Below are positions 582-29,737 of a stretch of DNA of 64,000 bases, one piece after another (within the stretch, counting starts at the first letter, position 1; the number at the start of each line of letters is the position of its first letter). Where the stretch lies: NCBI GenBank assembly GCA_016700095.1, contig CP065002.1:304463-368462 (forward strand), written 5' to 3'. The notes under the pieces were generated by a model, which worked only from the letters and a program-made list of their open reading frames with translations, was not told the DNA's origin and searched no databases. A program made the position numbers and the translations under genes. The stretch is from Candidatus Woesebacteria bacterium. GTDB lineage: Bacteria > Patescibacteriota > Microgenomatia > UBA8517.

Positions 582-3500
582 TTGTTAACACTGCCCATGA
601 GAACAAAATTAAATAGCTCCCAGAAAATAGATATTATAAATAGGGCTCTTTCGGGTGGATCAGTCACTGAAATCTGCAAAGATATAGGTATATCTAGGGT
701 TTTGTTCTATAGATTGCTTCAGAGATACAAAAAGTATGGAGAAAAAGGATTAGAAGAACGTAAAAAAGGTCGCCCCAGAAAGTATAGAGCACAAAAATTG
801 ACAACTAATATTCAAACAACAAACAATATTATCTCGGCTCATGAGAGATTGCGCATGGTAGAAGAAGTTGTTAATGAAGGAAGGCGTCCATCAGTGATTG
901 CAAAGAAGTATCAAGTTTCAAGACCAACGTTATATAAATGGATCAAAAGATATAAAAAGTCTCAACAAACAAGAATTCATGCTGTCGAAAACAAAACCCC
1001 CAAGTATTCGAGGTACTATAGGCAAGCTCCCGAATTATATGAAGATGCTGTTTTGTCACTGGTTACTAAGTTTCCTGAATATGGTGTAAGAAAAATCGTT
1101 GCCAATCTTCCTCAAATTGGTAAAAAACCAATTCTTGGGCATCATGGAGTACAAAACGTTTTACAGCGCCACAATTTATCAACTCTAGATAGGCGTATGG
1201 CGTATGCCAAATCTCAAGAGACTGTTATCACAAGTTCGATTTCTGGTGCTCTTTCCAAAATCAATAATTTCTTTGCTATTCCTTTGGAAACTCGACAAAA
1301 GGTTGTGCGCTTTTCGGCAGTGTTTTTTTTAACATCTTTTTTCACCGTAGTCCTTTTTGGCATGGGTGGAGCTGTTACGACTACTTTTATTGGAGTTCCG
1401 CTCGTAAAACAAATCGGTTTAACTCTTGCGTTAGTTGCTCTATTTATGGGGTCGGTATTTTTTGTATATTCACTTAAATACTATCTTACACTTGTCATTG
1501 TACTTTCGTTTTCTCAACAAGAAGATACCAATACGCGCCTGCGCGGAAACATTCTCCATAAATTATTAGGCTTAGTTGATGAAAACACCGATAAATCTAA
1601 ATTGGATCAAAAGCAAGCTGTAGGTTTAACTCCAAATTTAGACCATATCAAATTATCTCGTTACCCGTTTATTTCTGTTCAGATTCCTTTCTATAACGAA
1701 AAAAACGTAGCTGAGCGCGCAATTGCGGCAAGTACAAATTTTGATTACAAAGGTGATTATGAAGTTATTGTTTGCGATGATTCCACGGATGAAACTTTTG
1801 AAATAGTTAGAAATTACCAAAAACAGTACTTAGCAAAGAATTGCCAGTTAAAAATAAGTAAGGGTGATGGCTGGGATATGTCCGAAGTTGAAGTCAGACC
1901 CGGAGTAATTCTTAAACACCTTCACAGAACAACGCGGAGTGGATATAAAGGTGCTTCGTTAAAACTTGCATTGACCTTGGTTGATAAAAGAACTGAATTT
2001 GTAAGTATTTTCGATGCAGATTTCGTGCCGTATCCCGACAGTTTGGATTTATTTTTGAAATACTTTAAATCACAAAACGGTGGATCTGAAAATTACACTT
2101 CAAATAACATTGCCGCAGTCCAAGGATATCAATGGCATGTATTAAATAAATCAGAAAACTGGATAACAAGGGGAGTAAGAAGTGAATATGCAGGAAGTTA
2201 TGTAATAGAAAGAAGTGGTCAAGAAATTTATGGAGGATTAAAACACATTTCAGGAAGTGTATATATGATTAGGCGCGATGTGTTGGAAGAAGTAGGATGG
2301 AGATCTTCGATCACCGAAGATTATGAGCTTACGCTTCGGTTATACAATGCAGGATACAAAGTAGTATATACCCCATACATTCAGGCTCCAGCTGAGTGTG
2401 TTTCCACTTTGAAAAGGTTAATCAGACAAAGGATGAGGTGGGCAGAAGGACACAGTTTCAATGTCAAACTTATGTGGAAGAAATTATTAATTGGAAGATG
2501 GGAGTTGGCTAATAGTTCATCCACTGACTCGCATCAAGTTCATTCTTTGCATGGTACTAAAATGATGCGGGATGACAAAAAGGTATTCATTCCTAGTCCT
2601 CTAACCGTGGCTGAGAAAGTTGAATTTGTATTTAACATTCCTTACTACCTTCAAGCATTTCTATTTCTAATCGGGACTTTTGCCTGGTTACTCTCAGAGG
2701 CTGTATTCCAGGTAAGACTGCCTTTCTGGACTACTGTTTGGGGTTGGAGCCTCATCCTTACCAACATGTTTTCCTTGCCTTTGGTTAACGCAGTCGGCCT
2801 TTTCCTGGAAGAAAGTGAGGAAAGAGACTATCTTGGGCTTTTGTCATTTGTGGCACTTAGTTATATATTGGTTCCATTTCAGGCTTATTCGTCAGTTAAG
2901 GGTTTTATTCAAAAAGAAGAAGGGCCCTGGTTTAGAACTCCCAAAACTGGAAGAATTACAGACGTTTTCGCCCGAGGCAGGTTTTATCGTTTTATATCAG
3001 GAATTTTGCCGAAAAATTCAGGTAATAGAAATGAGGCACTAAGCGACAGTCTAAATACTGGTGCCTATTCACAAATGTCCAACTCGTATTTGTCGATGGT
3101 TACGGCAAACAATATTTTTAACACCTTTTCGATAAAACGAAAAACACAACGGTGGGTAGGTAAGCTTGCCTTGACTTCAATGGTTGCAGTTTCAATGTTG
3201 ATTGTGAGTTATGCACCGTATATCCCAAGCGGAAAGGTGAGTGTTGCAGCAGCTAATACGGGGGCAATACTGGCAGATAAAGCAATTGACAGCGACCAAC
3301 CAGTTGTGAATAAAGCAGGTAAAGCGCTCAATACAAATAATTTGGAAACAAATAAGGATGGTTTTACATTAACCTCTGACAATAAAGACTTCAAGATTAC
3401 AGATTCACCAAGTTTTCGTTTACAAGCCAGAACGAATTTCAAAGATAGGTTGGCAATAAATTTCGGCAACATCTTTAAAGGCAAAAATGAAAAGAAGGCG

Positions 3501-6500
3501 AGAATAATTAATGCTAAGGTAGTTAACCATAAAGGCAATGAATATGACGTTGGAATATTAGACGATAAGAATGGATATGAACTAGTTGTTGATTCCAATA
3601 ACTTGTCTCCGGGGTTATATGATTTAGTTGTTGAAGACAATCTGGGTAATAGTATTGCACAAGATTTTAGTTGGGGAGTGCTGGCAATTAACACCAACAA
3701 ATCGATTTACACGAAAGGGGAGAATGCCGAGTTGTCGTTTGCCGTACTCAATGAAGATGGGGAAATGGTATGTGATGCAAAATTAGAATTAGGAATTAGA
3801 AATTCGGAATTAGGAATCGATGAAACACTGTCAACCAATGACGGCTCAATACGTGTGACTCCCGGGTGCAATAGTAAAGAAATGTTATTAACTCCCGATT
3901 ATGAAGCGGAATATAAATTGGGGAGTATGGGTATTTATGAACTTACTTTGACTGCTACTACACATAATGGAAGCTATACAATTACTGACTCAATTGAGGT
4001 TCGAAAATCGGTAGAGTTTGACATAGAGCGTATTAGTGCGACACGTATTTATCCACTTTTAACGTACCCCGTGATATTTAATGTTATCCCGGAAAAGGAC
4101 TTTCAAGGAGTAATCACAGAAACGGTTCCTGCAGACTTTGCGATTGTTCGGATTACAGACGAAGAACTGAAAAATTATAGTACTAAAGAAAACAGCGTTG
4201 GTTCAAGTAAATTCTTAGACATCAAAAAACAGGGTGGTGTAGGGATAATTGAATGGCAGGTAAATTGGAAAAAAGGAGAAACTTATCATTTTGGCTATAA
4301 ATATGATGCTCCGGATAAAAGCCCAGCTCTTTACACTTTGGGTCCTTTGCAAATTGATGATTTTAGTGAAGCAAGAGTTTGGCAGATAGCGGTGGATGCA
4401 ATTTCAGGTATAACCGCCCGCAATTATGCGGTTGAAAATAGTAGTGATACAACCATAGCGGTATCTCCGGATGCTGCTATTACTGTCGGAAAAATTGCGA
4501 TCGTTTCGTGTGTGACTGATAATACAGCAACATCTGATGGGCCATCCACAGACCATTCATTGAGCGATACTGACGGGCATACTTGGAACAAGGTATTTGA
4601 AGAAACTGATTCTGCCGGTGCTGCTGCTGATGGTTCAACCACCTCATTGTGGTGGACGAAGGTTACAAGTGAAATCGGGACAGGTGATTCAATTACTTTG
4701 ACGTTAGGAACTGCCCGATCGGACAAGATTATTGCAATTGTAGAAGCTACTGTCGGAGCGGGTAATACCTTTGTCGCGATCCCTTCATCAGCTATCGATC
4801 ACTCAAATTCAGCTACCTCTTTGTCTGATGTTCAATCCGGGCTTACTAACCGGGAATATCTATTTTTTGGCTTGTTTGGAGCGGAAGGTGAAGACACTGC
4901 TAAAACTCCTATTGCCAACTATACCGAACAACACGACCGAGTGAGTACGACAACAGGTACAGCTGCCGTCAATGTGCAAATGCATGTCGGCACCCGAATC
5001 CTTACAGGGACTGGTGACACTTGGACAAGTTCGGCAGTCACTTTTACTAATGGTATCCAGTCTCTGACAGCATTTTATGAAGTTTCAAGTACCATAACTG
5101 TTTCCGGAAATGTATATAATTTTGGTACTTCGAGTGCTCTTACTGAATGTGATGCAAGTGGAGCAACACATGAATTAAGTTTGAGAGTTGGATCAACAAC
5201 CTATACCACAAGTTGTGATGCTTCAGATTCAGGTGCATATTCCTTCACTTCAGTTACACCTCCCTCGGGTGGATCGGGGATGGTGGTTTGGATTGATGAT
5301 GCCGAAGCTTCCGAGACAGATGGTGCAGCAGTTATTCAATACGATGGATCAGGTGATTCAACCGGAAATTCTTTTTACGATGATGCCGTGACTATTCTCA
5401 CTGATGATGGCAGTGGTGTCACGATTGATATGATGGATGCGTATGACAGTGGCGGTGATGCAGACATTCCCTATACTGCTACAAGTGGATCCCCCGATAC
5501 GCTTACGGTTTCCGATAATTATACATTGCTTATACCTTCTGGTGAGGTGTTTGCTCCGGGAGGGAATTTAAATAACGGTTCGGGAGCCGGAATAGATAAT
5601 ATTAATATATCAGGAACCTATACCGCAGCTACCGGGGAATCGATACTCGTTTCCGGTACCTGGACCCAGTCTGGTACCTTCACCTCAAGTACTTCCACTG
5701 TCACCTTTGATGCTCCTGGTGCTACAACTGAGGATATTGTTACAACAGGAAGTGGAGCATTTAACAATGTTGTCTTTAATGATGGGGAAGGTGGTGCCAC
5801 TTGGGAGATTGAAGATCCTCTGGATGTGGATGGTAACTTTACCATAACAGGTGGGACAGTGGATGTTGTAAGTGGAGAAGATAATCAGATTAACGTAGGA
5901 GGAAACTGGACCAATGATGATACTTTTGTGGAAAGAAGTGGAAAGGTAGTCTTTGATACTTCAACTACTGCTACCCTAGATAGTAACTGTTCCGATGTGG
6001 GTACTTGTACCAATGAGAATTTCTACGACCTGGAACTATCCAAAGCAAGTTCGGGGAATACCGTTACTTTGACTAACTTTGGTATACGGGTAACTAATAC
6101 CTTAACCCTCACTACGGGGACTTTGGTGCAAGGAGCATATAATGTCCGGGTTGAGGGGGCAACTGCAGTATCAGTAGCCTCAAATGGTATCTGGAGTAAT
6201 ACTTCAACAGGAGACGTGATCCTTGGTGGCTCCTTTGCCAATAGTGGCATAGTAACCATGCAGGGAACAACAAGCGCTTGCGGAGAAACTGATGCAATTT
6301 CAATCACCTCAACTTCAGGTGGAAGTCAAAGGAGTTGGACTAGTTTGGGAGGTACTTTCAACATGAATGATGTTTCGGTCCAGGACCAGGGAGGAAGTGC
6401 TGCAATTACAGTTTACTCTGGTACCAACGTCAGTGGTAACAATTCCAACTGGGTGTTTGAAGATTGTGTTACCAGTTCTACATCTTCTTCTGCTACAGGA

Positions 6501-8333
6501 CATTCATTCCAAAGAAAGACATTCTACGATGATGAAAATGAAACCTTCTGGAGGTTTTACCATGATGGTGATGAAGTTGACATAGAATATTCTAAAGATA
6601 GTGGTGATACCTGGAGTTCTACTACTGCCTTGGCATATGACACCAATGACTTTTCTGTCTGGTGGAAAGCAATCACGGTTGGAGAAACCACCACTGAATA
6701 TGTATGGATGGCAGTTACCACGTCAGATGATATCCTGGTCAGACGCGGGACATTAGGATCAACATCAGTCACCTGGGACAGTGAAGCCAATGTGGTTTCA
6801 CTTAATGGCACAGGAGCATCTGACACCTACTCATACCCATATATTTCGTTGGATGATGCAAACTATATGTGGGTGGGAGCAAGACATTACAATGGAACTA
6901 ACTATACGTATAAGACAGTAAGAAGTGATGCTTCTGACACCGGTAATGCCACCTGGAGTGGAGTAGGCTTTGGTTCTACTGTTCCCGTATCCCAAGTATC
7001 AGCTGACCAAACAAATGCAAATGTCTTTGGCAACATTGTTCCACTTAATGGCCAAGACATGTATGCAGCCTTTGTCAGTAACACTCTTCTTCAGGGTTGT
7101 GTCTGGGACCACAGTGACGCTGCCTGGGAAGATAGTGATGGGGCAAGTTGTGTTAGTACCGGTGGAAGTGCACCTGTATTTCGTGGAGAATCTTCTTCAA
7201 CTTTTACAACAGCAGCCAGCGTTGTGGTAAATAAACCGACAGGGACAGTCGATAACGACATTATGCTTGCAATTATTTATAAGGAAAATACCGCAGCAGT
7301 AACAGCACCATCAGGCTGGAATTATATTGATGGAGAAACACCGACGACTGATCATGATGTAATTGTTTACTGGAAAAGGGCGAGTTCGGAAGGTAGTAAC
7401 TACACCTGGAGTTGGACAGGAAGTACTTGGAGCGGGGGAGCGATTATGTCATATAGTGGTGCGATAACAACAGGAGATCCGGTAAATACTTATTCCGCCA
7501 ACAGCGCCTCATCAGGACAAACCTTGACCGCAACGGGTGTGACGACAAGTGTTGACAACACGACAATTGTTGCTTTGGGAGCACATTGGAATACGGGTAC
7601 GTATTCAGGACCAACCGGATATACTGTTCGAGCAACACCTCAATCTATGAGGCTTTCTGACAAAACCCAAGCCTCTGCGGGGGCTACAGGAGATGCTGTC
7701 ATGACAACATCTGCAAACAGTTCATCCTGGACTGCACATTTGGTTGCACTCAAACCTGCAGGTACACCCGGGAGTAGAGATGCAATTGATACTGTACCAA
7801 GTGGATTAAGCAAAAATATATCGGCCGTTGTTGATACTACCAATTACGATGTTCACCTTCTTTTTGTAGACGATGAATCAACAGATCAGGTAAGTTACAA
7901 AAGATGGGACAAGATAAACCAGGAATGGGATGTAACTGCAACCCTAGTTGCAGGTGGAACAAGTGATACCGATGCTTACGTATCCCTCTCGTATGATACG
8001 GATGCAAGTGATCTTTACGCAATCTGGATAGACACATCTACAAATCACATCTTCTACACAGCTTGTGACATATCAACACAGTGCAGTTTGGCCAGTGACT
8101 GGATAGTAGGAGTAGAAGAGGAGATAGACTGGCATACAGAAACACAACCAACCAACTTAACCAGTAACTACTCAAGTGGAACCAATGTCTTTGCTCAGTG
8201 GTCTGATGGATCAGGTTCACCATACTCTGTTGAGTGGGATATCATTGTGGTGCCGGAGTGGATTTGGTTAATTATTGTTGCCGGTCCGATTTTGCCACTT
8301 ATGGGTAAATTTAGAAAGAAAAGACATCAATGA
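582..8333 (+). CDS. Giant fusion protein (2583 aa): N-terminal transposase-like HTH modules, processive GT2 core, TM bundle, huge surface region, C-terminal VPE-hydrophobic-basic tail
   Basis: Uninterrupted 7.75 kb ORF. HTH motifs: 'GGSVTEICKDIGISRVLFYRLLQRYKKYG' and 'RRPSVIAKKYQVSRPTLYKWIKRYKK'. GT2 motifs: 'IVCDDSTDE' (DxD), 'FDADFVPYPD', 'ITEDYELTL' (TED), 'QRMRWAEGH' (QxxRW). TM helices before and after the GT domain. About 1700 aa T/S/G/D-rich C-terminal region. Tail 'VPEWIWLIIVAGPILPLMGKFRKKRHQ'. Confidence 0.85.
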   Translation: MLTLPMRTKLNSSQKIDIINRALSGGSVTEICKDIGISRVLFYRLLQRYKKYGEKGLEERKKGRPRKYRAQKLTTNIQTTNNIISAHERLRMVEEVVNEGRRPSVIAKKYQVSRPTLYKWIKRYKKSQQTRIHAVENKTPKYSRYYRQAPELYEDAVLSLVTKFPEYGVRKIVANLPQIGKKPILGHHGVQNVLQRHNLSTLDRRMAYAKSQETVITSSISGALSKINNFFAIPLETRQKVVRFSAVFFLTSFFTVVLFGMGGAVTTTFIGVPLVKQIGLTLALVALFMGSVFFVYSLKYYLTLVIVLSFSQQEDTNTRLRGNILHKLLGLVDENTDKSKLDQKQAVGLTPNLDHIKLSRYPFISVQIPFYNEKNVAERAIAASTNFDYKGDYEVIVCDDSTDETFEIVRNYQKQYLAKNCQLKISKGDGWDMSEVEVRPGVILKHLHRTTRSGYKGASLKLALTLVDKRTEFVSIFDADFVPYPDSLDLFLKYFKSQNGGSENYTSNNIAAVQGYQWHVLNKSENWITRGVRSEYAGSYVIERSGQEIYGGLKHISGSVYMIRRDVLEEVGWRSSITEDYELTLRLYNAGYKVVYTPYIQAPAECVSTLKRLIRQRMRWAEGHSFNVKLMWKKLLIGRWELANSSSTDSHQVHSLHGTKMMRDDKKVFIPSPLTVAEKVEFVFNIPYYLQAFLFLIGTFAWLLSEAVFQVRLPFWTTVWGWSLILTNMFSLPLVNAVGLFLEESEERDYLGLLSFVALSYILVPFQAYSSVKGFIQKEEGPWFRTPKTGRITDVFARGRFYRFISGILPKNSGNRNEALSDSLNTGAYSQMSNSYLSMVTANNIFNTFSIKRKTQRWVGKLALTSMVAVSMLIVSYAPYIPSGKVSVAAANTGAILADKAIDSDQPVVNKAGKALNTNNLETNKDGFTLTSDNKDFKITDSPSFRLQARTNFKDRLAINFGNIFKGKNEKKARIINAKVVNHKGNEYDVGILDDKNGYELVVDSNNLSPGLYDLVVEDNLGNSIAQDFSWGVLAINTNKSIYTKGENAELSFAVLNEDGEMVCDAKLELGIRNSELGIDETLSTNDGSIRVTPGCNSKEMLLTPDYEAEYKLGSMGIYELTLTATTHNGSYTITDSIEVRKSVEFDIERISATRIYPLLTYPVIFNVIPEKDFQGVITETVPADFAIVRITDEELKNYSTKENSVGSSKFLDIKKQGGVGIIEWQVNWKKGETYHFGYKYDAPDKSPALYTLGPLQIDDFSEARVWQIAVDAISGITARNYAVENSSDTTIAVSPDAAITVGKIAIVSCVTDNTATSDGPSTDHSLSDTDGHTWNKVFEETDSAGAAADGSTTSLWWTKVTSEIGTGDSITLTLGTARSDKIIAIVEATVGAGNTFVAIPSSAIDHSNSATSLSDVQSGLTNREYLFFGLFGAEGEDTAKTPIANYTEQHDRVSTTTGTAAVNVQMHVGTRILTGTGDTWTSSAVTFTNGIQSLTAFYEVSSTITVSGNVYNFGTSSALTECDASGATHELSLRVGSTTYTTSCDASDSGAYSFTSVTPPSGGSGMVVWIDDAEASETDGAAVIQYDGSGDSTGNSFYDDAVTILTDDGSGVTIDMMDAYDSGGDADIPYTATSGSPDTLTVSDNYTLLIPSGEVFAPGGNLNNGSGAGIDNINISGTYTAATGESILVSGTWTQSGTFTSSTSTVTFDAPGATTEDIVTTGSGAFNNVVFNDGEGGATWEIEDPLDVDGNFTITGGTVDVVSGEDNQINVGGNWTNDDTFVERSGKVVFDTSTTATLDSNCSDVGTCTNENFYDLELSKASSGNTVTLTNFGIRVTNTLTLTTGTLVQGAYNVRVEGATAVSVASNGIWSNTSTGDVILGGSFANSGIVTMQGTTSACGETDAISITSTSGGSQRSWTSLGGTFNMNDVSVQDQGGSAAITVYSGTNVSGNNSNWVFEDCVTSSTSSSATGHSFQRKTFYDDENETFWRFYHDGDEVDIEYSKDSGDTWSSTTALAYDTNDFSVWWKAITVGETTTEYVWMAVTTSDDILVRRGTLGSTSVTWDSEANVVSLNGTGASDTYSYPYISLDDANYMWVGARHYNGTNYTYKTVRSDASDTGNATWSGVGFGSTVPVSQVSADQTNANVFGNIVPLNGQDMYAAFVSNTLLQGCVWDHSDAAWEDSDGASCVSTGGSAPVFRGESSSTFTTAASVVVNKPTGTVDNDIMLAIIYKENTAAVTAPSGWNYIDGETPTTDHDVIVYWKRASSEGSNYTWSWTGSTWSGGAIMSYSGAITTGDPVNTYSANSASSGQTLTATGVTTSVDNTTIVALGAHWNTGTYSGPTGYTVRATPQSMRLSDKTQASAGATGDAVMTTSANSSSWTAHLVALKPAGTPGSRDAIDTVPSGLSKNISAVVDTTNYDVHLLFVDDESTDQVSYKRWDKINQEWDVTATLVAGGTSDTDAYVSLSYDTDASDLYAIWIDTSTNHIFYTACDISTQCSLASDWIVGVEEEIDWHTETQPTNLTSNYSSGTNVFAQWSDGSGSPYSVEWDIIVVPEWIWLIIVAGPILPLMGKFRKKRHQ

Positions 8334-8914
8334 ATCAGAAAAAAGTATTTAAAGATATATTGATTGTGACGGCAATTGTATTGTCGCTACTTCCCGTTAT
8401 TGTAACTTTTAGTGCAATACTAACCACGCTTTTCGACAAATTAAGTTGGTATGTGTGGCTGCAACGCGAAGTTGTACCCGTGGAATCCAGAATGGTTGCG
8501 GTATTGGTGAAGGTTGTCGGTATCGATGCTCAAATTACATCACATATTAATTTTTCCATGGTGTTAACCAGGGGTGAGACAATAATTCCAGTTCAATTGG
8601 AATGGAACTGTCTTGGTTGGCAAAGCATGATTTTACTTGTTACTACATTTGTAACAGGTTTGCGTGGGCGCTACAAATTGTCGTCGAAAATTGAAACAGT
8701 GATTATTGGCATACTCGGGACGTTTCTGTCAAACCTTTTTAGAATGGCTTTTATTGTTACCCTCGCTTATTACTGGAATAGCTTCGCAGCGATGATAATT
8801 CATGATTATTTCGCAAGCTTTATTGCCGTAGCTTGGATGCTATTTTTCTGGTGGTTTAGCTATAGCTATGTGCTTGATGAAAAAATAGAGAGTAACTTAA
8901 ACGAAGTGAAATAA
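8330..8914 (+). CDS. Mini exosortase/archaeosortase-domain membrane protein (194 aa), XrtG-like candidate
   Basis: Start overlaps the stop of the upstream giant (ATGA at 8330-8333). 4-5 predicted TM helices. Conserved with the 14085 paralog: 'WNCLGWQS' (Cys), 'GLRG(R/N)Y' (Arg), 'SNLFRMAF'/'INIFRLVF' (N-x-x-R), 'HDY/HNY', and C-terminal 'SYSYVL(D/E)EK'. Confidence 0.55.
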   Translation: MNQKKVFKDILIVTAIVLSLLPVIVTFSAILTTLFDKLSWYVWLQREVVPVESRMVAVLVKVVGIDAQITSHINFSMVLTRGETIIPVQLEWNCLGWQSMILLVTTFVTGLRGRYKLSSKIETVIIGILGTFLSNLFRMAFIVTLAYYWNSFAAMIIHDYFASFIAVAWMLFFWWFSYSYVLDEKIESNLNEVK

Positions 8915-9335
8915 CCCAAGTTAGTTTTCTATTCAACAATCTATATAATTTAAAGATTGATTTGAGGGTATTAGTGTGTACCCAAAAACTTCAAAGGATA
9001 TCTTACTGTGTCTTTTTAGCAGTGTGATATTAATAAACCAAACGAAGAAGTAGTAAATAATTTCTTTTGTTTTGTTTAATAATCACAAAATAACCAATTT
9101 AGTGATTGAAGTTAATATATTTAATGGTCTTATATATTTACTATATATTATTAGTTATATATATATTATACCTATAATATTAGTAAGTTTTTATAGTTTA
9201 ATTTGGGGGCAAATAAAAAAACGGAAATTGTTTATGGAATTTTGTAATTTGAGTAATTGCAAAAATATCTCAAAACAATATCTAGCTTAGTAATATATTT
9301 AACAGTTTTCAAACAACAAATAATACTAATTGTTT

Positions 9336-9941
9336 TCACTCAATACTTATGTAAACAATAATTAGTAATAAAATATCTATAACAATAAATATTACTAAAG
9401 AAATAATAAAGGGGAGTGGAACACCAAAATATTTTTTAGTTGCACTAATACTTTTTCGATTATTTGTGTTTGTATTTTCTAAATGATTATTTTGCGAATT
9501 TTCAGTAAATGTTTCTGCAGCATTTATGGAAATGGTTTTATTTGTAGATATATTATTTTGTGTTAGTGGAATATTTGAAGTTGTGGTGCTGGTAGTATGA
9601 CCCATATCTACTATGGGGCTATTTGTTACACCAGAAGGATTAAAGTTAGTTGTAACATTATCGGATAGTATAGATGTTTTACTAGATTCCTTTTTAATAT
9701 TTTGCTCATTATTAGACGATACAATATTTTCTGAACTGTTTATCGTTTTATCGGAAATAGCATGCACGTATTTATTGCCAAATAATTTATCGAGATCTTG
9801 TTTGGAAAAATACCTGTGTCCACCGGGAGAGCGATGTGTGTCAATTTTTCCTGACATCTCCCACCTTCTTAGAGTATCAACAGAAACCCCCAAGTATTTA
9901 GCGGATTTTCCTATTCCTAGCTTGTCTTCTGTAATTTGCAT
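9336..9941 (-). CDS. MerR/excisionase-type HTH protein with N/S/T-rich linker and C-terminal TM anchor (201 aa)
   Basis: N-terminal 'SAKYLGVSVDTLRRWEMSGKIDTHRSPGGHRYFSKQDLDKL' is a typical MerR-type HTH. It is followed by a low-complexity Asn/Ser/Thr region and a C-terminal hydrophobic helix 'FIISLVIFIVIDILLLIIVYI'. Divergent from the 10008 giant gene. Confidence 0.55.
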   Translation of the reverse strand: MQITEDKLGIGKSAKYLGVSVDTLRRWEMSGKIDTHRSPGGHRYFSKQDLDKLFGNKYVHAISDKTINSSENIVSSNNEQNIKKESSKTSILSDNVTTNFNPSGVTNSPIVDMGHTTSTTTSNIPLTQNNISTNKTISINAAETFTENSQNNHLENTNTNNRKSISATKKYFGVPLPFIISLVIFIVIDILLLIIVYISIE

Positions 9942-10007
9942 AGATATATATAGATTTGCATAGATATTGTCTTACTTAAAGATACTAATTGTCAATAACC
10001 TTGAAAT

Positions 10008-13000
10008 GTGGTGATACATTTGAAAAACAAAAGGCTATTGACCTTGGTCCCACATGGTGCTTACACTTTATATGAACCTAAAAATTGGTATATGCAAAAG
10101 ACTGCCCTAACCGCAAAACAAAGATTGGCATTAATGGAATTGGTTTATAAATATAATGAATCAGTTACGGTTTGTTGTAAGAAATTTGGTGTTTCAAGAT
10201 TTACGTTTTACAAATGGGCTAAGTTTTATAGTGTAGGGTTATCGAGAAATGAAAACTTAACCAATCTTCGAGATAAAAAACCAGCTACAGTATCTACTCT
10301 TAATGCAACTCCATACGAGGTACAAGAGCAAATAAAACGTATTGCTGCAGAGAAACCTGATTCTAGCAAATACGAGATTGCAAAAGAGCTTAGAGATCGT
10401 CTAGGAGAAAAAGCAGTTGGTGTTCATGGAGTATATAATGTATTAAAACGTTCAGACTTGACCACTCCTGAAGCAAGAAAGGAATGGCAGTTATTTGTTC
10501 AAGCGAAAAGTAATATTGTACTTACAGCACCCCAAAGGCTTGAAGTTATAACCAGATCAGAAAAATTAAACATCCCAGTAACTGTTGTTTGTCGTGATTT
10601 TGGAATTTCTAGACAAACATATTATAAATGGAAAAGAAGATGGGAAGAAGGAGGACAAGATATTGATACACTAAGAGATAAAAAACAGCAGTATGATCGT
10701 AGAAAATTTAGAATCGATAGAGAAAAAGAAAAAGCAATCCTTTCGGTAATAATAGAAACACCGGATTTATCAAAATATAAAATCGCAGAAAAATTAAGAG
10801 AACTTGGATATGCTGTTAGTCCTCACGGGATATACAATGTCCTCTTGAGGAACGGATTGAACTTACCTGAAGGCAGAATGAATTATGCAGCAAATCATTC
10901 GCAAACAATTGAAACTCCCTCAATTGAATGGACAAACCGCATTAAGTCATCGTTGGAACAGTTTTTGCCCACACTAGCGCCAGCGCCACCTCCAGTATTT
11001 AATATTATAATTAACTTCACTAAAACTTTTCTTGCTTCATCTGTCTTTGCCTTAGCCGTTTCTTATTCAAGTGTGTGGTGGTTGAATTTTTTACTAACCC
11101 AAACAACACATGTAGCTATTGGATTATTCTTTGCTACACTAGCTTTACTTACTGGATCGATATTTTTCCTTTATTCCTTAAAATACTATATAACCCTTGC
11201 GGTTGTACTTTCTTACTCGAAAGACCAAAATACTATCGGTATAGATAGTACAACTCCGTTAAAACAAAAAGGATTAATATCAAGGATAATCGGGTTTAAC
11301 AATAATACTAGTGTTGATGAAAATATTCCTGTTGGGTTAACATCGGATTTAAGTGGGATTAATATTTCTAAAAAACCATTTGTCTCAATACATATTCCTT
11401 TCTATAACGAAAAATATGTAGTAAGGCGATCAATCGAAACGGCTGTTAATTTTGATTATCAGGAGTATGAAATTATTTTATGCGATGACTCGACTGATGA
11501 TACTTCTACTATTATTAGAAACTATCAAATAGATCATTTACCAATTGGTGAAAAACTTGAAGTCGTTAGTGGTAAGGGATGGGAGATGGCAACAGTCGAA
11601 ATTCGTCCCGGTGTGTTTCTAAAACATCTTCATAGAATATCAAGGGGAGGATTTAAAGGCGGTGCATTAAAAATTGCCTTGGAATTGGTTGATCCAAGAT
11701 GTGAATTTATATCTGTATTTGACGCAGACTTTGTCCCATATCCAGATACTATAAACCTATTTCTTAAATACTTTAAAATACAAAACGGTATGTCGGAAGA
11801 CTATGCCAAAAGCGCAGTCGCCGCAGTCCAAGGCTATCAGTGGCATGTTCTTAACAAATCAGAAAACTGGATAACCAGGGGAGTAAGAAGTGAATATGCA
11901 GGAAGCTATGTAATTGAAAGAAGCGGTCAGGAAATTTACGGAGGCCTAAAGCATATCTCGGGAAGTGTATATATGATTAGAAGGGATGTATTAGAGAAAG
12001 TGGGTTGGAATACGTCTATTACCGAGGATTATGAATTAACACTTAGGCTTTATGATGCCGGTTACAAAGTAGTCTACACCCCATACATTCAAGCCCCAGC
12101 TGAATGTGTATCTACCTTAAAACGCCTAATCAGACAAAGAATGCGATGGGCAGAAGGACACAGTCACAATGTAAAACTGATGTGGAAGAAACTTCTATTT
12201 GGAAGCTGGGAAGAAACTGGTGGTTTATCTAACACTCCACACCAGGTTCTTGCTTCACAGACAACAAAATTGATGCGGGATGGCAATGCCGCTTATAGTA
12301 GTGTAGCGACATTGTCAAATTCTAGAAGTAGAATATTTGTTCCATCTCCACTTACCATTGCAGAAAAGATTGAATTTCTTTTCAATATGCCTTACTACCT
12401 TCAAGCATTTCTATTTCTAATCGGGACTTTTGCCTGGTTACTCTCAGAGGCTGTATTCCAGGTAAGACTGCCTTTCTGGACTACTGTTTGGGGTTGGAGC
12501 CTCATCCTTACCAACATGTTTTCCTTGCCTTTGGTTAACGCAGTCGGCCTTTTCCTGGAAGAAAGTGAGGAAAGAGACTATCTTGGGCTTTTGTCATTTG
12601 TGGCGCTTAGTTATATATTGGTTCCATTTCAGGCTTATGCTTCTATCAAAGGCTTTCTGGAAGACAAAGAAGGTGGGTGGTTTAGAACTCCTAAAACAGG
12701 AAGAATTACTGATGTATTTACAAGAGGCAGATTTTATAGGTTTATACAAGGAGTATTGCCCAGAAGAGGGGGTCAGCCTGCAGTAGCTGAAGCAGGTGTT
12801 TCTCAAGCTTATCTTGCACTTAATTCTGCCAACAATCAATTCAATTCATTTAGTATTAAACCCAAGAAAGTGTTCTGGTTAGGAAAAGCTTCGCTGGCTT
12901 TTGTTTTAATTGTTGTTATGTTATTGAACTCTCTGGCTTTTAGAGTAAAACCAGCTGAAGCTTGGTATGGTACAGAAGGTTGGTCGTATAGGATTAAACT

Positions 13001-14063
13001 GACTGTAAAAAACGGAAAAGTTGATGCAGATTTGTCAAACTTTCCGGTTTATGTAAATTTAGATGATTTGCCTGATGCTACTTTTTGGGCTCATGTTAAA
13101 TCTCTATGTGCTGATGTAAGAGTAACAAATTCTGGAGGATCAACAGAGCTTCCTATTGAAATTGTTTCCTGCGACACGACTGCAAAAACGGGTGAGATGT
13201 ATTTTAAAGCTGACAGTTTGGCAGATTCAACTGATACTGATTTTTATATTTATTATGGTAATTCGGGTGCTTCTTCCTATGAAGTTACCGACACCTATGG
13301 CAGAAATAACGTCTGGACTAATGGCTATGGTGGAGTTTGGCACATGGGCGGCGGAACATTGATCGATTCCAGCGGGAATGTCGGTAATTCAACAACACAA
13401 ACCGGTACGGAATATACGTCGGGAAAAGTAGGTATAGCAACAGATTATTCGGGATCACAGAGGTCAATTATGCCGACTGCCACGACAATAGACGAAGATG
13501 TATTGGATAGCTTAACTTATACCGTTTGGGTTAATAGTGATTCTACTTCGTGGGGCAGGCAAATGGAAAAAAGTAATCAATATTTTCTTTTGGGTAATTA
13601 CGCTGGGACTGGATCGGCCGGTCCTCTACTGAAAATTAGCGGCTCCAATCAGGTTGCGACTGTAGGTACTTTGAGTACCGGAACATGGTATCAGGTTGGT
13701 GGTAGATATTCTTATTCTGGCGGGACTACTGGAGTTCTTAACGCTATCTTGAATGGTAATATAAATGCTACAACAAGCAATCTATCTAATTACATAGATT
13801 CTGCAAATACTGGCCTGTATGTCGGTTCAGACGATTCAGGTGGTTATTTTAATGGTAAGATGGATGAGCTTCGAATTGCGTCTGTTGTTAGAACGACCAA
13901 TTGGCTATCAACCGAATACAACACTCTTAATGACACATCAACTTTTTATTCTCTTGAAGCGGAAGAGGAAGTGCCGGAGTTGGTTATTTTATTGCTGCCG
14001 TTAGCAATCTTGATTCCTTTTGTAGTTAAATATCATGAAAAAAGAAGGAGGCTAGTCGTATAA
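10008..14063 (+). CDS. Fusion protein paralog 2 (1351 aa): two transposase-like HTH, processive GT2, TM bundle, LamG-containing surface domain, VPE-CTERM-like tail
   Basis: HTH: 'VTVCCKKFGVSRFTFYKWAKFY' and 'VTVVCRDFGISRQTYYKWKRRWEEGG'. GT2: 'ILCDDSTDD', 'FDADFVPYPD', 'ITEDYELTL', 'QRMRWAEGH'. LamG signature: 'YFNGKMDELRIASVVRTTNWLSTEYN'. Tail: 'VPELVILLLPLAILIPFVVKYHEKRRRLVV'. The true start may be the downstream Met at ~10092. Confidence 0.85.
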   Translation: MVIHLKNKRLLTLVPHGAYTLYEPKNWYMQKTALTAKQRLALMELVYKYNESVTVCCKKFGVSRFTFYKWAKFYSVGLSRNENLTNLRDKKPATVSTLNATPYEVQEQIKRIAAEKPDSSKYEIAKELRDRLGEKAVGVHGVYNVLKRSDLTTPEARKEWQLFVQAKSNIVLTAPQRLEVITRSEKLNIPVTVVCRDFGISRQTYYKWKRRWEEGGQDIDTLRDKKQQYDRRKFRIDREKEKAILSVIIETPDLSKYKIAEKLRELGYAVSPHGIYNVLLRNGLNLPEGRMNYAANHSQTIETPSIEWTNRIKSSLEQFLPTLAPAPPPVFNIIINFTKTFLASSVFALAVSYSSVWWLNFLLTQTTHVAIGLFFATLALLTGSIFFLYSLKYYITLAVVLSYSKDQNTIGIDSTTPLKQKGLISRIIGFNNNTSVDENIPVGLTSDLSGINISKKPFVSIHIPFYNEKYVVRRSIETAVNFDYQEYEIILCDDSTDDTSTIIRNYQIDHLPIGEKLEVVSGKGWEMATVEIRPGVFLKHLHRISRGGFKGGALKIALELVDPRCEFISVFDADFVPYPDTINLFLKYFKIQNGMSEDYAKSAVAAVQGYQWHVLNKSENWITRGVRSEYAGSYVIERSGQEIYGGLKHISGSVYMIRRDVLEKVGWNTSITEDYELTLRLYDAGYKVVYTPYIQAPAECVSTLKRLIRQRMRWAEGHSHNVKLMWKKLLFGSWEETGGLSNTPHQVLASQTTKLMRDGNAAYSSVATLSNSRSRIFVPSPLTIAEKIEFLFNMPYYLQAFLFLIGTFAWLLSEAVFQVRLPFWTTVWGWSLILTNMFSLPLVNAVGLFLEESEERDYLGLLSFVALSYILVPFQAYASIKGFLEDKEGGWFRTPKTGRITDVFTRGRFYRFIQGVLPRRGGQPAVAEAGVSQAYLALNSANNQFNSFSIKPKKVFWLGKASLAFVLIVVMLLNSLAFRVKPAEAWYGTEGWSYRIKLTVKNGKVDADLSNFPVYVNLDDLPDATFWAHVKSLCADVRVTNSGGSTELPIEIVSCDTTAKTGEMYFKADSLADSTDTDFYIYYGNSGASSYEVTDTYGRNNVWTNGYGGVWHMGGGTLIDSSGNVGNSTTQTGTEYTSGKVGIATDYSGSQRSIMPTATTIDEDVLDSLTYTVWVNSDSTSWGRQMEKSNQYFLLGNYAGTGSAGPLLKISGSNQVATVGTLSTGTWYQVGGRYSYSGGTTGVLNAILNGNINATTSNLSNYIDSANTGLYVGSDDSGGYFNGKMDELRIASVVRTTNWLSTEYNTLNDTSTFYSLEAEEEVPELVILLLPLAILIPFVVKYHEKRRRLVV

Positions 14064-14084
14064 TGTCTAAGGCATAGTTTCTAT

Positions 14085-14657
14085 ATGAATAAAAATAATC
14101 AATTAACTAAAGATACTTTCAAACTATTATTAGTTTTATTGGTGATTGTTCTTTTAATATTACCCTTTGCGACGGCATTTAATGAATTTCTAACTGAGGT
14201 TGTGGAAAATATTGGATTTTATATGGTCATTCAAAGCACCCTTGTGCCGTACATGAGTATGCTAACGGCTGCAATATTGAATATTTTGCCCGGACTCGAA
14301 GTGGGAATATTACCTTATGGAGTGGTAGTTAACGGTATTGACGTGCGTATCACCTGGAATTGTTTGGGTTGGCAAAGCTTTTTGCTTTTTTTTGCATCTT
14401 TATTTGTAGGACTAAGGGGAAATTACTCTGGAAGTTCTAAAATTCAGGCTGTCTTGTTTGGTTTATTGGGTACATTTATCATCAATATTTTTCGTTTGGT
14501 ATTTACAGCCGCACTAGTTGTATGGTGGAGAGGATTGTTTGTTATTCTATTTCACAATTATTTTTCGACCTTTATCGCTATACTTTGGCTTATACTTTAT
14601 TGGTGGATTTCTTATAGCTATGTGTTGGAAGAGAAAGATGGGGAGATTAATAAATAA
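14085..14657 (+). CDS. Mini exosortase/archaeosortase-domain membrane protein paralog (190 aa)
   Basis: 21 bp downstream of the giant gene. Multi-TM. Shares 'ITWNCLGWQSFLL', 'GLRGNY' and 'NIFRLVF' with the 8330 paralog. Confidence 0.55.
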   Translation: MNKNNQLTKDTFKLLLVLLVIVLLILPFATAFNEFLTEVVENIGFYMVIQSTLVPYMSMLTAAILNILPGLEVGILPYGVVVNGIDVRITWNCLGWQSFLLFFASLFVGLRGNYSGSSKIQAVLFGLLGTFIINIFRLVFTAALVVWWRGLFVILFHNYFSTFIAILWLILYWWISYSYVLEEKDGEINK

Positions 14658-14861
14658 TTTAATGCATTTAGTACAATCACCAAAGCGTTAGTTGTGGGTG
14701 GCAATCACGCAATAAAAAGTTCAAGAAAAGCTACAGTCCTTTTAACTAGTAGATTCCTTGGCGCATGAGGCGTTTTGTAAATCCGTCATAATATATCATT
14801 ATATGTCAGTATCACACTAATTACGCACGACGGGGTTTTATAATTAATTTCAAGAGTATTT

Positions 14862-15167
14862 TTACAATAGACTTCGAAGTCGAAAGTCGGGAAAGAGTGT
14901 TTTTTGCAGATTTAGGTCATGACCTTTGGCTACCCTAATTGCTTCAAGAATTGTTTTTATGCCTGCGATGTTAAGTTTGCGTTCAAATGATAAATATTTA
15001 AGAAACTGCAAATCGTTAAGGTCTGCGACACTAAACATTCTTCGTTTGGTTTTGGTGCGGTGGGGAGTTAGAAGTCCCGCTTTTTCATAAGCCATGATAG
15101 TTCGTATATGCAATTCAAGCAGTTTTGCCGCTATGGAAATAGTCAGAATTGGTTGATCGTTATTCAT
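14862..15167 (-). CDS. MerR-family transcriptional regulator (101 aa)
   Basis: 'LTISIAAKLLELHIRTIMAYEKAGLLTPHRTKTKRRMFSVADLNDL' is a MerR-type HTH plus the start of a dimerisation helix. Confidence 0.6.
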   Translation of the reverse strand: MNNDQPILTISIAAKLLELHIRTIMAYEKAGLLTPHRTKTKRRMFSVADLNDLQFLKYLSFERKLNIAGIKTILEAIRVAKGHDLNLQKTLFPDFRLRSLL

Positions 15168-16113
15168 GTCGCAAAATATTATCCGTTACTTTTTTGGTTA
15201 ATATAATCATACTAACTTGATTACATAAAAGCGTCAAGAGAGTATTGATAAAACCGCTCTAATTGTTTACTGATTCCATGATAATACAATACATATTTGT
15301 TGATTACTTTTTATATACATATATTATATAAGTTAAGATTTATATACTTAGTATTCATATAATATTTTAGTCAGATATTATTATAGCTATATCCATTATA
15401 TCTTACATATAAATTATGTTATCTTTGCTATAAATACCTATATTAAGTTGCGTAGACAGCAGATATTTTTGTTTATCACACTTGATAAGTAACGGTAAAT
15501 ATTTAGCAATGGCAATATATGAGGCTGTTATATGAGTAAGGTTTATACCCAATTAGACATTTGAGATATTTCTGTAAGCATTAGGATGACTACAAATACT
15601 GACTTCGTAAAGACCTATATATATTTTTATCGTGAAAAATAGTTATCCACTTTAATGTGGAAAGTTTGTTTAGAAATAATACTAAGTAAATTGGTAATAT
15701 TTATGTGTAGCAGTTAGATATAAGTAGTCATTTGTAGCCACAGATGGCCTTTAGAATACAAATTAAGAAGATTCGAGTTTAAAAAGTATTCAAGAATTGG
15801 CAGTAGAAAGAGTAGTATCCAGCTTCAATAATCGACATAATCATCCAATTTAGAAAAATATCCGACAAATCGTGCCTAAAAATGTGCACACAATTGAAAA
15901 CACCCTATAATAGAATATAAAATATAACCTATAGATAATATAAATTTTTAAAAACTCGCTAAAATAAGGCTAATTGGATGTATTTTTTACTCAATAAAAT
16001 GCACATTAATTACCGCAAGAATTACCTTAGCTTTGACCTATATTCACCATTGACATGCGTTAGTATGGTTGGTAACAATATAGATAGTTAAATTAGCCAC
16101 GAAAGTTACACTT

Positions 16114-19100
16114 ATGTCTGCCCGATGTAAAAGTAAATATTCTCCAAGTGAAAAAGAAACAATAGTTCTGGAGTGCATTGGTAATAATAAATCAATAACA
16201 AAACTAGCCAAGAAGTATAAAGTGTCTAGGAAAACTTTATATTCGTGGCTGAAAAGATATAAAAACAGCGCAAATAGAAATAAAAATAAAGCCCTGGTGA
16301 ATGCTTATGTCAAAGGAAAAGATCATCCTAAAAGCAAAGTTAGTTCTATTAAATCTAAGGTTATTCGTATTGTAAGCGCACATCCAGAGTGGGGAGCGCG
16401 CTCTATAAGTAATGAACTAAAAAAGCAAGGCTGTGATATTGGATTTTTTGCAGTGCATACCTTTCTACAGTCGATGTCGATTGAAAGAAGAGATTTAAGA
16501 GAGAGTTTTGCCACTAATTATACAGGCCCCGGGAGATATATGCCTGATGTGAAGCTCGAGATTATTAACAAGTTTAGGCAGGGAGAAACTGTTTCCAGTC
16601 TTTCTGACAGTTACGCGATATCGCGAAAGACGCTTTATCAATGGATCAGAAAGATACAAAATATATCAGATGTTTCAAAATACGATTTGGCGGATGCTTA
16701 TGTATCGGGAGAGAAACATCCCTTCGCTGTTTATCCAAAAATCGAAGCTCACCTACTTAGTATTGTCAAAAAACACCCCGACTATTCGATTCACAAATTA
16801 GCCGAACTACTGCCTGTGTCGTCATGGACGGTTTGGTCGACGCTTAGCCGAAACGGTTTGTCTACTTATACAGAGCGTCAGCGGTTTGCAAACCAAGGTG
16901 GCGTGATAGGGAAGACGGACTATTCTCCACAGGTTAGAAGTACCCTGGAGCAGTTCATGCCCACTTTGGCACCGGCTCCGCCTCCGGTTTCTTCGTCCAG
17001 AATTAAAACGAATCTTAAACCATCATATAAACAACTTGCACGTCACTTCTTATTTTCCGCAATATCTTCGTTAATTGTTGCCTTAACTACTCGATACTGG
17101 GTGTCAATTTTAATATCTGCGAGCTCGTTTTCGGAAGGAATAGGCCTGGTACTGGCTACTGTTGCACTTTTCTCCGGAGGGATTTTCTTCCTCTACTCAC
17201 TGAAATATTATTTAACCTTAGCCGTTGTTCTTTCCTACTCGCAGGATGAGAAAGAAAATGCTGACGAGAAATCTCCCACTAAATTTATTTCATGGTTATT
17301 GGGGAAAAATGGGTCAAGCCATAATTTCGGCAAGAGTGGTTTAGAGCCGAACCTCGAGCATGTAAATCTAAAAAATCATCCTTACATCTCAGTCCAAATA
17401 CCATTTTTCAACGAGAAATATGTAGCCGAGCGTGCAATTAGTGCGGCAATTAATTTTGACTACAAGGGCGATTACGAGGTTTTGGTTTGTGACGACTCAA
17501 CCGATGAAACAACACAGATAATCAGGAGTCTTCAACAAAAATATTTACCCGACAACAAAAAACTAAAAATATTTATTAACAAAGAAGAAGGCTGGGAATT
17601 GTCAACAGTTGAGGTGAGACCGGGTGTCTTACTTAAACATTTACACAGGACAAGCAGGTCCGGATTTAAAGGAGGTGCTCTAAAAGTAGCGCTTAATTTA
17701 GTCGACCCAAGATGTGAATTTATTACCATTTTTGATGCCGACTTTGTACCATATCCCGATTCGCTTGATCTTTTCTTAAAGTACTTTAAGTTGCAAAACA
17801 ATGGCTCGGAGGATTATACACATAGTGATGTTGCTGCAGTTCAAGGATATCAGTGGCATGTTCTTAACAAATCAGAAAACTGGATAACCAGGGGAGTAAG
17901 AAGTGAATATGCAGGAAGCTATGTAATTGAAAGAAGTGGTCAAGAAATTTACGGAGGTTTAAAGCATATCTCGGGAAGTGTATATATGATTAGACGTGCG
18001 CCCTTAACCGAGGTTGGTTGGGATACTTCAATTACAGAAGATTATGAACTTACGCTTAAGCTTTACGAAAAAGGCTATCGAGTAGTCTACACCCCATATA
18101 TCCAAGCTCCGGCTGAATGCGTTTCCACCTTGAAACGCTTGATTAGACAAAGAATGCGATGGGCAGAAGGACACAGTCACAATGTAAAACTGATGTGGAA
18201 GAAACTTCTATTTGGGAGTTGGGAAGAGAAAGAGTCTGTTGGTAGTTCAAACAGCAAGTGTTTTGTCCCAAGTCCACTTACTGCGGCAGAAAAGATTGAA
18301 TTTCTTTTCAACATGCCTTACTACCTTCAGGCGTTTTTGTTTTTAATTGGAACATTTGCCTGGTTACTTTCGGAAACAGTTTTTCAAGCACGTCTTCCTT
18401 TCTGGACCGTTATTTGGGGTTGGAGCCTCATCCTTACCAACATGTTTTCCTTGCCTTTGGTTAACGCAGTTGGCCTTTTCTTGGAAGAAAGTGAAGATCG
18501 TGATTATGTCGGGTTGGTAAGTTTTACACTTCTTTCGTATATAGTTGTTCCATTCCAAGCATATGCATCATTAAAGGGATTCCTCGAGAAAGAAGAGGGT
18601 GGATGGTTTAGAACTCCTAAAACAGGAAGAATTACGGATGTGATTGCCAGAGGCAGATTTTATCGTTTTATATCCGGAATTTTGCCCGGCAAAGAAAATG
18701 TCAGTTCACTTGATACAAATTATTTGTCAATGGTTACGGCAAACAACATTTTCAACACCTTTTCAATAAAGCGAAAAACACAACGGTGGGTAGGTAAACT
18801 TGCCCTAACTTCGATGGTTGCGGTTTCTTTGTTAATTGTAAGTTTTGCACCATATATCCCTATCGGAAGAAACGGTGTTTTAGCGTTTGATGCAAACTCG
18901 ATTGTTTCACCTGGGGAGGCGAAACATACTTCGGATTTTTCTTTTGAAAATGAAACTAATAATTTTTCGATAACGGGACTTAGCCGTGATTTCAAAGTCG
19001 ACGAGGTACCGGGTTTTCATTTAGATGTAAAAACCGCACTTGTCGAACGCGTGCGTATTAACTTCAATCAAGTTATCGGTAAAGAGTTATCAAAAACAAT

Positions 19101-26643: not shown

Positions 26644-26669
26644 TTAGCGAAATCAACAAATATGAAAGC

Positions 26670-28094: not shown

Positions 28095-28315
28095 CCCAAC
28101 GTGTATGTTATACCTATATAACTTATAAAATAATTGGATCCGAAGTTGAGAATATAGTTTAGTTAACTTCGGAATTTTTTTGGTCACTCAGGTTTTAAAA
28201 ACAATCCGAGGATATAGTTTATTTAAAAGCATTGCTTTAGGTTATTAAAGTATGTAGCGGGGAATATTACGGGTCGAAACGACATAGTAAGCGACATTTT
28301 GCTTAAATATGTCAT

Positions 28316-29605: not shown

Positions 29606-29634
29606 TTCGAATTGATACACGAGTTCCATTAATG

Positions 29635-29737
29635 TCATTCCCGCTCCCTGTCTGTTATTCCCGCTCCCTGTCTGTTATTCCCGCTCCCTTTCTGTCATTC
29701 CCGCTCCCTGTCTGTCATTCCCGCGGACGCGGGAATC
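29635..29737. repeat. 20-bp direct tandem repeat, ~4.5 copies (tcattcccgctccctgtctg)
   Basis: Units at 29635, 29655, 29675 and 29695 with 1-2 mismatches. The fifth unit degenerates into the palindrome attcccgcggacgcgggaat. Confidence 0.9.

Follow-up and report, generated by a model that had tools for sequence, protein, structure and literature searches.

DNA-identical blocks in two tandem giant surface-protein genes of a Patescibacteria genome, predicted to encode the halves of one beta-propeller and probably homogenized by gene conversion

The 64,000-nucleotide stretch of contig CP065002 analyzed here (the window), from a Candidatus Woesebacteria bacterium, an ultrasmall inhabitant of wastewater, carries three tandem giant surface-protein genes, termed G1, G2 and G3. 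Two of them, G1 and G3, share two blocks of identical or nearly identical DNA within an otherwise divergent sequence, and these blocks probably arose by homologous recombination within the genome, i.e. by non-reciprocal gene conversion or concerted evolution between the two paralogs. The blocks are predicted to encode one domain, module A, and the two halves of a single beta-propeller. The sequence that separates the blocks is a nested payload, different in G1 and G3, located at an insertion hot spot that is used throughout the protein family. The genes and blocks are as follows.

582..8333, plus strand: G1, giant paralog 1, 2583 residues from a TTG start at 582
10008..14063, plus strand: G2, paralog 2, 1351 residues (QQS39289.1), DUF2341/LamG-like toward the C-terminus and ending in a VPE tail
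16114..26643, plus strand: G3, giant paralog 3, 3509 residues (QQS39292.1), with no exosortase gene after it
5648..7153 (G1) and 23397..24902 (G3), plus strand: block 1, 1506 bp, no differences and no gaps
7785..8257 (G1; identical parts 7785..7987 and 7989..8257) and 26032..26504 (G3), plus strand: block 2, 473 bp, one difference

The three proteins share an N-terminal order of two transposase-like helix-turn-helix (HTH) domains, transmembrane (TM) segments, a GT2 glycosyltransferase of the cellulose/PNAG-synthase type and further TM segments. This part is followed by a large extracellular region rich in Thr, Ser and Gly, and by a tripartite C-terminal signal that consists of VPE, about 18 hydrophobic residues and a basic cluster. 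G1, G2 and G3 are identical to the NCBI proteins QQS39286.1, QQS39289.1 and QQS39292.1 ("Candidatus Woesebacteria bacterium"); the entry for G1 begins at ATG 597 and contains 2578 residues.

The blocks were mapped by self-BLASTN and exact-match scans of the window. They are co-linear direct repeats that are translated in the same reading frame in G1 and G3, with identities of 100% over 1506 bp and 99.8% over 473 bp. The sole mismatch in block 2 (7988 C, 26235 T) is at a third codon position and is synonymous. All four edges are abrupt, a few bases separating an identity of about 55% from one of 100%, and the identity of block 2 stops inside the Glu codon of the sequence ...VVPE, where the third base differs synonymously. 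The flank 5' of block 1 is homologous between G1 and G3 with about 55% nucleotide identity, and the tails after VPE are homologous yet strongly diverged to a similar level (about 55%), whereas the stretch between the blocks (631 bp in G1 versus 1129 bp in G3) is non-homologous and cannot be aligned. Self-comparison revealed no partial copies of the blocks elsewhere in the window.

An initial annotation of this DNA had described 5651..7152 as identical to 23399..24901, and 7774..8258 as matching 26032..26509 with one mismatch. Both matches are real, although the coordinates were off by one to eleven bases: the first pair was offset by one base and slightly short, and the second extended slightly too far on both sides. 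The same annotation correctly placed the end of the second block at the VVPE codons. Its statement that the sequences differ completely between and around the blocks holds for the inter-block stretch, but not for the surroundings, where the upstream flank and the tail are both homologous.

For block 2, the proportion of synonymous differences (pS, Nei-Gojobori method) is 0.02; for block 1 it is zero, as none of the 348 synonymous sites differs. Saturated values of 0.54-0.78 were obtained for the GT2 core in every paralog pair, for the proximal extracellular region and for the flank just upstream of block 1. Given this saturation of synonymous sites outside the blocks, selection at the protein level cannot explain the identity, and chance is excluded as its source. 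Two other candidate causes were rejected. The blocks contain no opposite-strand open reading frame (ORF) of at least 150 residues, which eliminates an embedded antisense gene, and they encode in-frame homologues of domains in other proteins, which eliminates a mobile element.

Additional conversion-like tracts, shorter than the blocks, are found in the GT2 region of the three genes.

2640..2888 (G1) and 12390..12638 (G2), plus strand: 249-bp tract with one mismatch, in the GT2/TM region
11835..11981 (G2) and 17848..17994 (G3), plus strand: 147-bp tract of high similarity, with exact runs of 89 bp and 35 bp
12132..12202 (G2) and 18145..18215 (G3), plus strand: identical 71-bp tract

A three-way codon alignment of the HTH-GT2 part contains patches in which one pair of genes is near-identical at third positions. 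In a Sawyer-type permutation over the 711 variable sites of the GT2 region of G1, G2 and G3, the longest concordant run spanned 45, 12 or 11 sites depending on the pair, each with p<=1e-4 to 2e-4. For the blocks of kilobase scale, significance is trivial. Since the partners change from one of these shorter tracts to another, patchwise homogenization operates among all three genes, and the small GT2 tracts are independent support for gene conversion behind the large blocks.

The predicted domain organization of the blocks and of the intervening sequences is listed below.

About 5649..6467 (G1), plus strand: module A, the first 273 residues of block 1, with no Pfam match
6468..7151 (G1), plus strand: predicted N-terminal half of the propeller, the rest of block 1, residues 1963-2190
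7154..7784 (G1), plus strand: G1 payload (ins1), a domain of about 210 residues nested in the propeller loop, with no Pfam match
7785..8257 (G1), plus strand: predicted C-terminal half of the propeller, block 2, residues 2402-2559, up to VVPE
24903..26031 (G3), plus strand: G3 payload (ins3), DUF2341 and Laminin_G_3 (concanavalin A-like lectin), about 377 residues, in the same propeller loop

Module A was defined by the many homologues that align to G1 only from residues 1669-1690 (approximately) to residue 1962 and then end. An exhaustive phmmer search against 1.84 billion representative sequences yielded 3980 relatives; the best 150 of these provided 50 units with both propeller halves. The halves are contiguous, with no more than 11 residues between them, in 16 of the 50 units, and the others hold 169-1876 residues at the same point, with insert lengths clustering at about 230, 320-385, 716-750, 930-975 and 1100-1300 residues. 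In the homologue P0001, for example, the two halves are joined by a short linker, at the position where G1 has 211 residues and G3 has 377. The payloads include the G1 type, LamG alone, DUF2341 with LamG (the G3 type), unnamed inserts of 380 and 455 residues, and multi-domain arrays. Homologues of ins1 also exist as stand-alone proteins of about 215-245 residues, and the DUF2341-LamG cassette is likewise found on its own. Within the window, no second close copy of either payload exists: nothing matches ins1, and ins3 has only 25% amino acid identity to G2 and to the product of the gene at 49509..55286. The latter, on the minus strand, encodes a 1925-residue protein with DUF2341 and seven Laminin_G_3 domains; these domain types recur in the G3 payload and in the C-terminal region of G2, to which the protein is only about 25% identical.

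The fold of the scaffold was modeled with AlphaFold2 on a homologue with contiguous halves, P0140 (predicted local distance difference test score, pLDDT, 81.4; predicted template-modeling score, pTM, 0.81). In the model, all-beta structure forms a single propeller with six to seven blades, and a TM helix comes after it. A Foldseek search with this model returned GH145/sialidase-like propellers and the PLL/PHL lectins of Photorhabdus (E about 1e-9), with matches that include 5mum, 5mxg and 4irt (template-modeling scores 0.56-0.62). The payload junction of G1 and G3 corresponds to a loop between strands in the model. Additionally, a single Asp-box-like motif, SKDSGDTW, was noted by eye in block 1.

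Gene conversion or cassette shuffling had been proposed for the blocks by the initial annotation. Conversion is supported by the near-zero synonymous divergence inside the blocks, the saturation outside them and the further tracts; the cassette idea has to be inverted, such that the blocks are the constant scaffold and the nested domain is the variable part. In the proposed mechanism, recombination between paralogs would keep the anchor-proximal scaffold (module A and the propeller, directly before the VPE signal) identical. Because the G1 and G3 payloads are unrelated, the conversion tracts would end internally at the payload, resulting in two blocks instead of one. On the outside, excessive divergence between the paralogs would limit the tracts, 5' of module A and 3' of the VPE codons, and the same process would act on a smaller scale in the GT2 region of all three paralogs. 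That recombination was the mechanism is inferred from these data, as are its direction and any benefit to function. One possible benefit is that the two propeller halves, which have to fit each other, would stay matched, so that recombinants with matched halves would be favored.

A single recent segmental copy of the whole C-terminal module, comprising module A, the propeller and the sorting motif, from one paralog into the other, with the payload replaced in frame afterwards or at the same time, would also account for two blocks with equally low, near-zero divergence, as expected from one event. All four edges are at or near domain boundaries, and payload replacement clearly happens at this insertion site, a family hot spot that accepts payloads of many kinds and sizes. 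However, such a copy requires a precise in-frame payload swap during a period in which the 1979 bp of the blocks gained one substitution, the window contains no payload donor, and the tracts in the GT2 region show that patchwise homogenization was already active. Moreover, the propeller is combined with G1-type payloads and with DUF2341-LamG payloads in distant lineages, such that retention of old payloads with overwriting of the scaffold is more economical than a very recent, precise swap. The segmental copy is therefore considered rather unlikely compared with gene conversion between G1 and G3.

The reliability of the repeats depends on the assembly. The window belongs to the metagenome-assembled genome (MAG) Kalu_18-Q3-R12-55_MAXAC.182_cln (CP065002), a circular, single contig of 1,274,238 bp (Singleton et al. 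2021, PMC8012365, supplementary file 5). The MAG originates from the Kalundborg wastewater plant in Denmark (BioProject PRJNA629478), is classified as Patescibacteria; Microgenomatia; GWA2-44-7; UBA8517, and has a coverage of about 21x (PMC8012365). In that project, Nanopore reads were assembled with CANU and polished with Racon and medaka, and then with Racon using Illumina reads (PMC8012365).

The window offers a further sign of long-read assembly: it spans more than four copies of a 954-bp tandem repeat, and the copies keep two to three single-nucleotide polymorphisms (SNPs) each, so that variation within repeats was not erased. This repeat (59852..64000, extending to the window end; more than 4.3 copies with 99.7-100% identity, differing by 2-3 SNPs) is located in a giant minus-strand gene, which corresponds to the ORFs 55279..61347 and 61265..63934. 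In the second copy, a short run of A near 61315 is one base longer, which splits the frame into two overlapping ORFs; this is either a genuine frameshift or a homopolymer error left over from Nanopore sequencing. The repeat was characterized by script; Tandem Repeats Finder, with a period limit of 500, reported nothing.

Independent information comes from the Logan short-read assembly of SRR11674018, the only sample with near-identical contigs. One contig (L001) corresponds to window positions 8228..11864 and another (L002) to 26475..29666. In both, the first base lies precisely 30 nt (k-1) upstream of the final base shared by the two copies of block 2; past the block, L001 runs into the sequence downstream of G1 and L002 into that downstream of G3. 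The 3' end of L001 is located 30 nt into the 89-bp exact repeat of G2 and G3. The start points of the two contigs are de Bruijn graph behavior at true repeats with two exits, and the branching of an independent assembly exactly at the end of block 2 renders an assembly collapse unlikely. A protein search across the G3 payload junctions found no Logan fragments with 100% identity, and the contig index gave no exact match for G1, for G3, for P0020 or for the gene at 33377..36586.

An assembly or polishing artefact would mean that the blocks are truly present at only one locus, that payloads and tails are joined to the wrong locus, or that two similar copies were homogenized by short-read polishing. 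The modest coverage (about 21x) and the Illumina-Racon polishing are compatible with such an artefact, as reads shorter than the repeat have no unique placement. The 1-bp homopolymer indel in the 954-bp repeat points to residual errors or unresolved variation, and independent verification covers two of the eight block junctions. On the other side, the CANU assembly of Nanopore reads closed to a 1.27-Mb circle, and repeats of 1.5 kb are far below the typical read length. The four junctions in each gene are all in frame, within intact ORFs of 2583 and 3509 residues, and the flank 5' of block 1 is homologous in both genes, such that each needs the module at that position. Additionally, the 2-3 SNPs between the 954-bp copies and the one SNP in block 2 survive, both exits of block 2 are present in the Logan assembly, and polishing cannot turn a divergence of about 45% into identity. 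An artefact is thus highly improbable. The assembly collapse flagged by the initial annotation is unlikely in view of the circular Nanopore/CANU contig, the SNPs kept in near-identical repeats and the two block 2 exits.

Since block 2 ends at the sorting signal, the C-terminal tails and the adjacent small membrane proteins, termed mini-exosortases, are described here.

8258..8333, plus strand: G1 sorting tail; after VPE, 18 hydrophobic residues and KFRKKRHQ; diverged from the G3 tail
26505..26643, plus strand: G3 tail; after VPE, a hydrophobic stretch of about 12 residues and then a long basic extension
8330..8914, plus strand: mini-exosortase 1, 194 residues, overlapping the G1 stop codon by 4 bp
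14085..14657, plus strand: mini-exosortase 2, 190 residues, after G2

Both mini-exosortases pass the TIGR04178 signature with 41.0 and 37.0 bits (cutoff 23), and are far below the cutoffs of the named subfamilies (ArtC 28.6/100, XrtG 16.6/102.75, XrtY 13.6/160). Residues C94, R138 and H158, which we take to be the catalytic triad of exosortases, are invariant across four mini-exosortase sequences. Among the curated CTERM models, none gave a match at E<=0.1. The pattern [VIL]PE, followed by 17-19 hydrophobic residues and a K/R cluster, is present in the G1 and G2 tails and in about 35 of 58 family members.

Of the three paralogs, G3 alone has no mini-exosortase gene after it (window 26505..26700), and its competence for sorting is uncertain, with a hydrophobic stretch of about 12 residues versus 17-19 in the family. 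It may depend on the sortase of G1 or G2, or its signal may be degenerate. The identity of block 2 ends at the presumed cleavage motif, so the mature C-termini of G1 and G3 would match while the removed signals differ. An identical mature C-terminus for a shared sortase may be a benefit of the homogenization, and would be relevant to G3, which has no sortase of its own.

The HTH-GT2 fusion family includes 57 strong relatives in Microgenomates (38-56% identity), which are named merely "glycosyltransferase" or "transposase-like" in databases. A two-gene unit, consisting of an HTH-GT2 giant gene with a [VIL]PE-TM-basic tail and a following gene for an exosortase-family protein of about 190 residues, is widespread in Microgenomates. 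At one related locus, L012, on another Patescibacteria contig, two giant genes are arranged in tandem (10001..17205 and 17794..25367), with a mini-exosortase after each. No description of exosortases or of the HTH-GT2-giant family in Patescibacteria was found in the literature. In a further contig, L004 (JBAZKE010000001.1, a Patescibacteria MAG), segments 12344..12768 and 13537..13961 share 88.7% nucleotide identity without gaps; they encode the last 140 residues of a 4232-residue giant ORF and of the adjacent 345-residue gene product. C-terminal segments common to neighboring surface genes may be a recurring theme.

The arrangement of the blocks also has to be considered with respect to programmed variation, in which the propeller halves would serve as homology arms for frequent payload exchange, or for deletion and fusion across direct repeats that lie 17.7 kb apart, and the exposed binding domain would thereby be switched. 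In both genes the variable domain is surrounded, in the same order, orientation and frame, by one arm of 1.5 kb, which is perfect, and one of 0.47 kb, and family members vary greatly at the insertion site. Patescibacteria are thought to live attached to host cells (PMC8012365), and a variable surface would be of use to them. However, silent or truncated cassettes are absent, the three complete paralogs provide only two payloads, and the window ORFs scanned against Pfam include no match to a recombinase or reverse transcriptase. The public data searched contain no alternative combination, and the tandem paralogs of L012 have no identical arms. Programmed variation is accordingly quite improbable, and the antigenic or phase variation raised by the initial annotation is not supported, as G1, G2 and G3 are full-length genes with their own starts. 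A diversity-generating retroelement was rejected as the cause of the pattern, because the sole difference between the block copies is C/T and not A-specific, and no reverse transcriptase domain was found among the window ORFs scanned.

Judged from their sequence, in-frame direct repeats at this distance would be predicted to generate hybrid and deletion products as well as payload exchange. The locus therefore predicts reads that carry hybrid, deleted or payload-swapped variants, which can be tested in existing long-read data. A more far-reaching proposal is that the propeller halves are maintained as homology arms of a swapping device, with constant scaffold and variable payload, through which giant GT2-fused, exosortase-sorted surface proteins would exchange nested payloads and, across the 17.7-kb direct repeats, entire C-terminal parts, and which would retune the host-attachment specificity of episymbiotic Patescibacteria; this is distinctly unlikely.

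Several observations weigh against gene conversion between G1 and G3 as set out above. The flanks, with about 55% nucleotide identity, are too diverged for RecA-type exchange today, which implies either continuous homogenization since a duplication, and hence an earlier payload swap, or an unusual initiating event. The public data searched yielded no relative of these genes with more than 63% amino acid identity, leaving direction, non-reciprocity and age without an outgroup. Relatives were sought by the exhaustive search of representatives and by scans of two DNA collections (best 51% and 58%); word-indexed protein search is weak for giant proteins, as it missed G1 and G3 although both are in the collection, and no match exceeded 2225 residues in three outputs. 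The nearest scaffold homologues carry yet other payloads, and the donor direction is not inferable from them. Outside the assembly, the confirmed junctions are the two 3' ends of block 2. The propeller assignment derives from a homologue that is 30-40% identical, and an AlphaFold2 model of the G1 segment itself (residues 1961-2583, from a three-sequence alignment) reached a pLDDT of 34 and was not used. Finally, the tandem pair of L012 contains no identical blocks, which argues against block identity as a general property of the family and makes it a feature of the CP065002 genome.

The remainder of the window contains further genes of interest. Divergently oriented MerR-type HTH genes are located between the giant-gene units, at 9336..9941 (minus strand, 201 residues with a C-terminal TM segment) and 14862..15167 (minus strand, 101 residues); the 580 bp that precede G1 contain no such gene. 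G3 is followed by a long same-strand run of genes for surface glycans (26670..43097) that encodes three PTPS_related/large membrane proteins, two GT4 glycosyltransferases and four S-adenosylmethionine-dependent methyltransferases. The adjacent 1.9-kb segment 43097..45018 is without ORFs of at least 150 residues and holds an 86-bp repeat with about 90% identity (43797..43882 and 44571..44653) that has no Rfam match. Rfam and tRNA scans gave no matches. Taken as a whole, the window resembles an island of cell-envelope genes.

Despite the tiny size of their genomes, Patescibacteria devote many kilobases to giant surface proteins, probably for host attachment. This locus illustrates how such genes evolve by modular recombination, with a constant propeller scaffold and a differing nested domain. 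It also documents a widespread and apparently undescribed unit, in which an HTH-GT2-giant protein with a VPE tail is paired with a mini-exosortase. Perfect repeats of kilobase length inside genes break short-read assemblies, and the locus is an example for annotation and assembly work. The process itself, gene conversion among paralogous surface-protein genes, is already well known; what is new is the lineage (a Patescibacteria genome of 1.27 Mb), the gene family, and the DNA-identical split propeller with different nested payloads.

Paralog gene conversion in surface genes reportedly occurs in babA/babB of Helicobacter pylori, in opa of Neisseria and in pmp of Chlamydia, and is said to be covered by a review of Santoyo and Romero from 2005. 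The present case resembles these in the presence of full-length paralogs in one genome, in the sharp-edged tracts that are identical even at synonymous sites, and in the involvement of several partners. In contrast to these cases, tracts of 1.5 kb lie here beside saturated flanks and bracket a non-homologous nested domain, and the genes are HTH-GT2 fusions of 2.6-3.5 thousand residues in a 1.27-Mb Patescibacteria genome. Silent-cassette antigenic variation, as in Neisseria pilE/pilS, Borrelia vlsE and Mycoplasma genitalium mgpB/MgPar, shares with this locus the conserved segments around a variable one, the surface location of the proteins, and homologous recombination as the presumed driver. 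It differs in that G1, G2 and G3 are complete ORFs with their own HTH-GT2 parts, without asymmetry between expressed and silent copies and with only two variants. Furthermore, it is the arms that are identical here, and what varies is a pair of unrelated domains, not versions of one sequence.

The predicted nesting of the payload is comparable to that of the integrin alpha-I (von Willebrand factor A) domain, which is inserted between propeller blades. In both, an autonomous domain resides in a propeller loop and the propeller closes from two halves of the sequence; the bacterial loop, however, holds anything from nothing to about 1900 residues of different domains, and in this genome the inserts of two paralogs differ although their propeller is identical at the DNA level. 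The C-terminal region is similar to the PEP-CTERM/exosortase and archaeosortase systems (Haft et al., TIGR04178) in its order of a motif, a hydrophobic helix and a basic cluster. As in those systems, a small membrane protein of the exosortase family, in which a Cys, an Arg and a His are invariant, is encoded after two of the three giant genes. The differences are a motif of the form [VIL]PE, sortases of only about 190 residues, and a substrate that is fused to its own GT2 and HTH domains.

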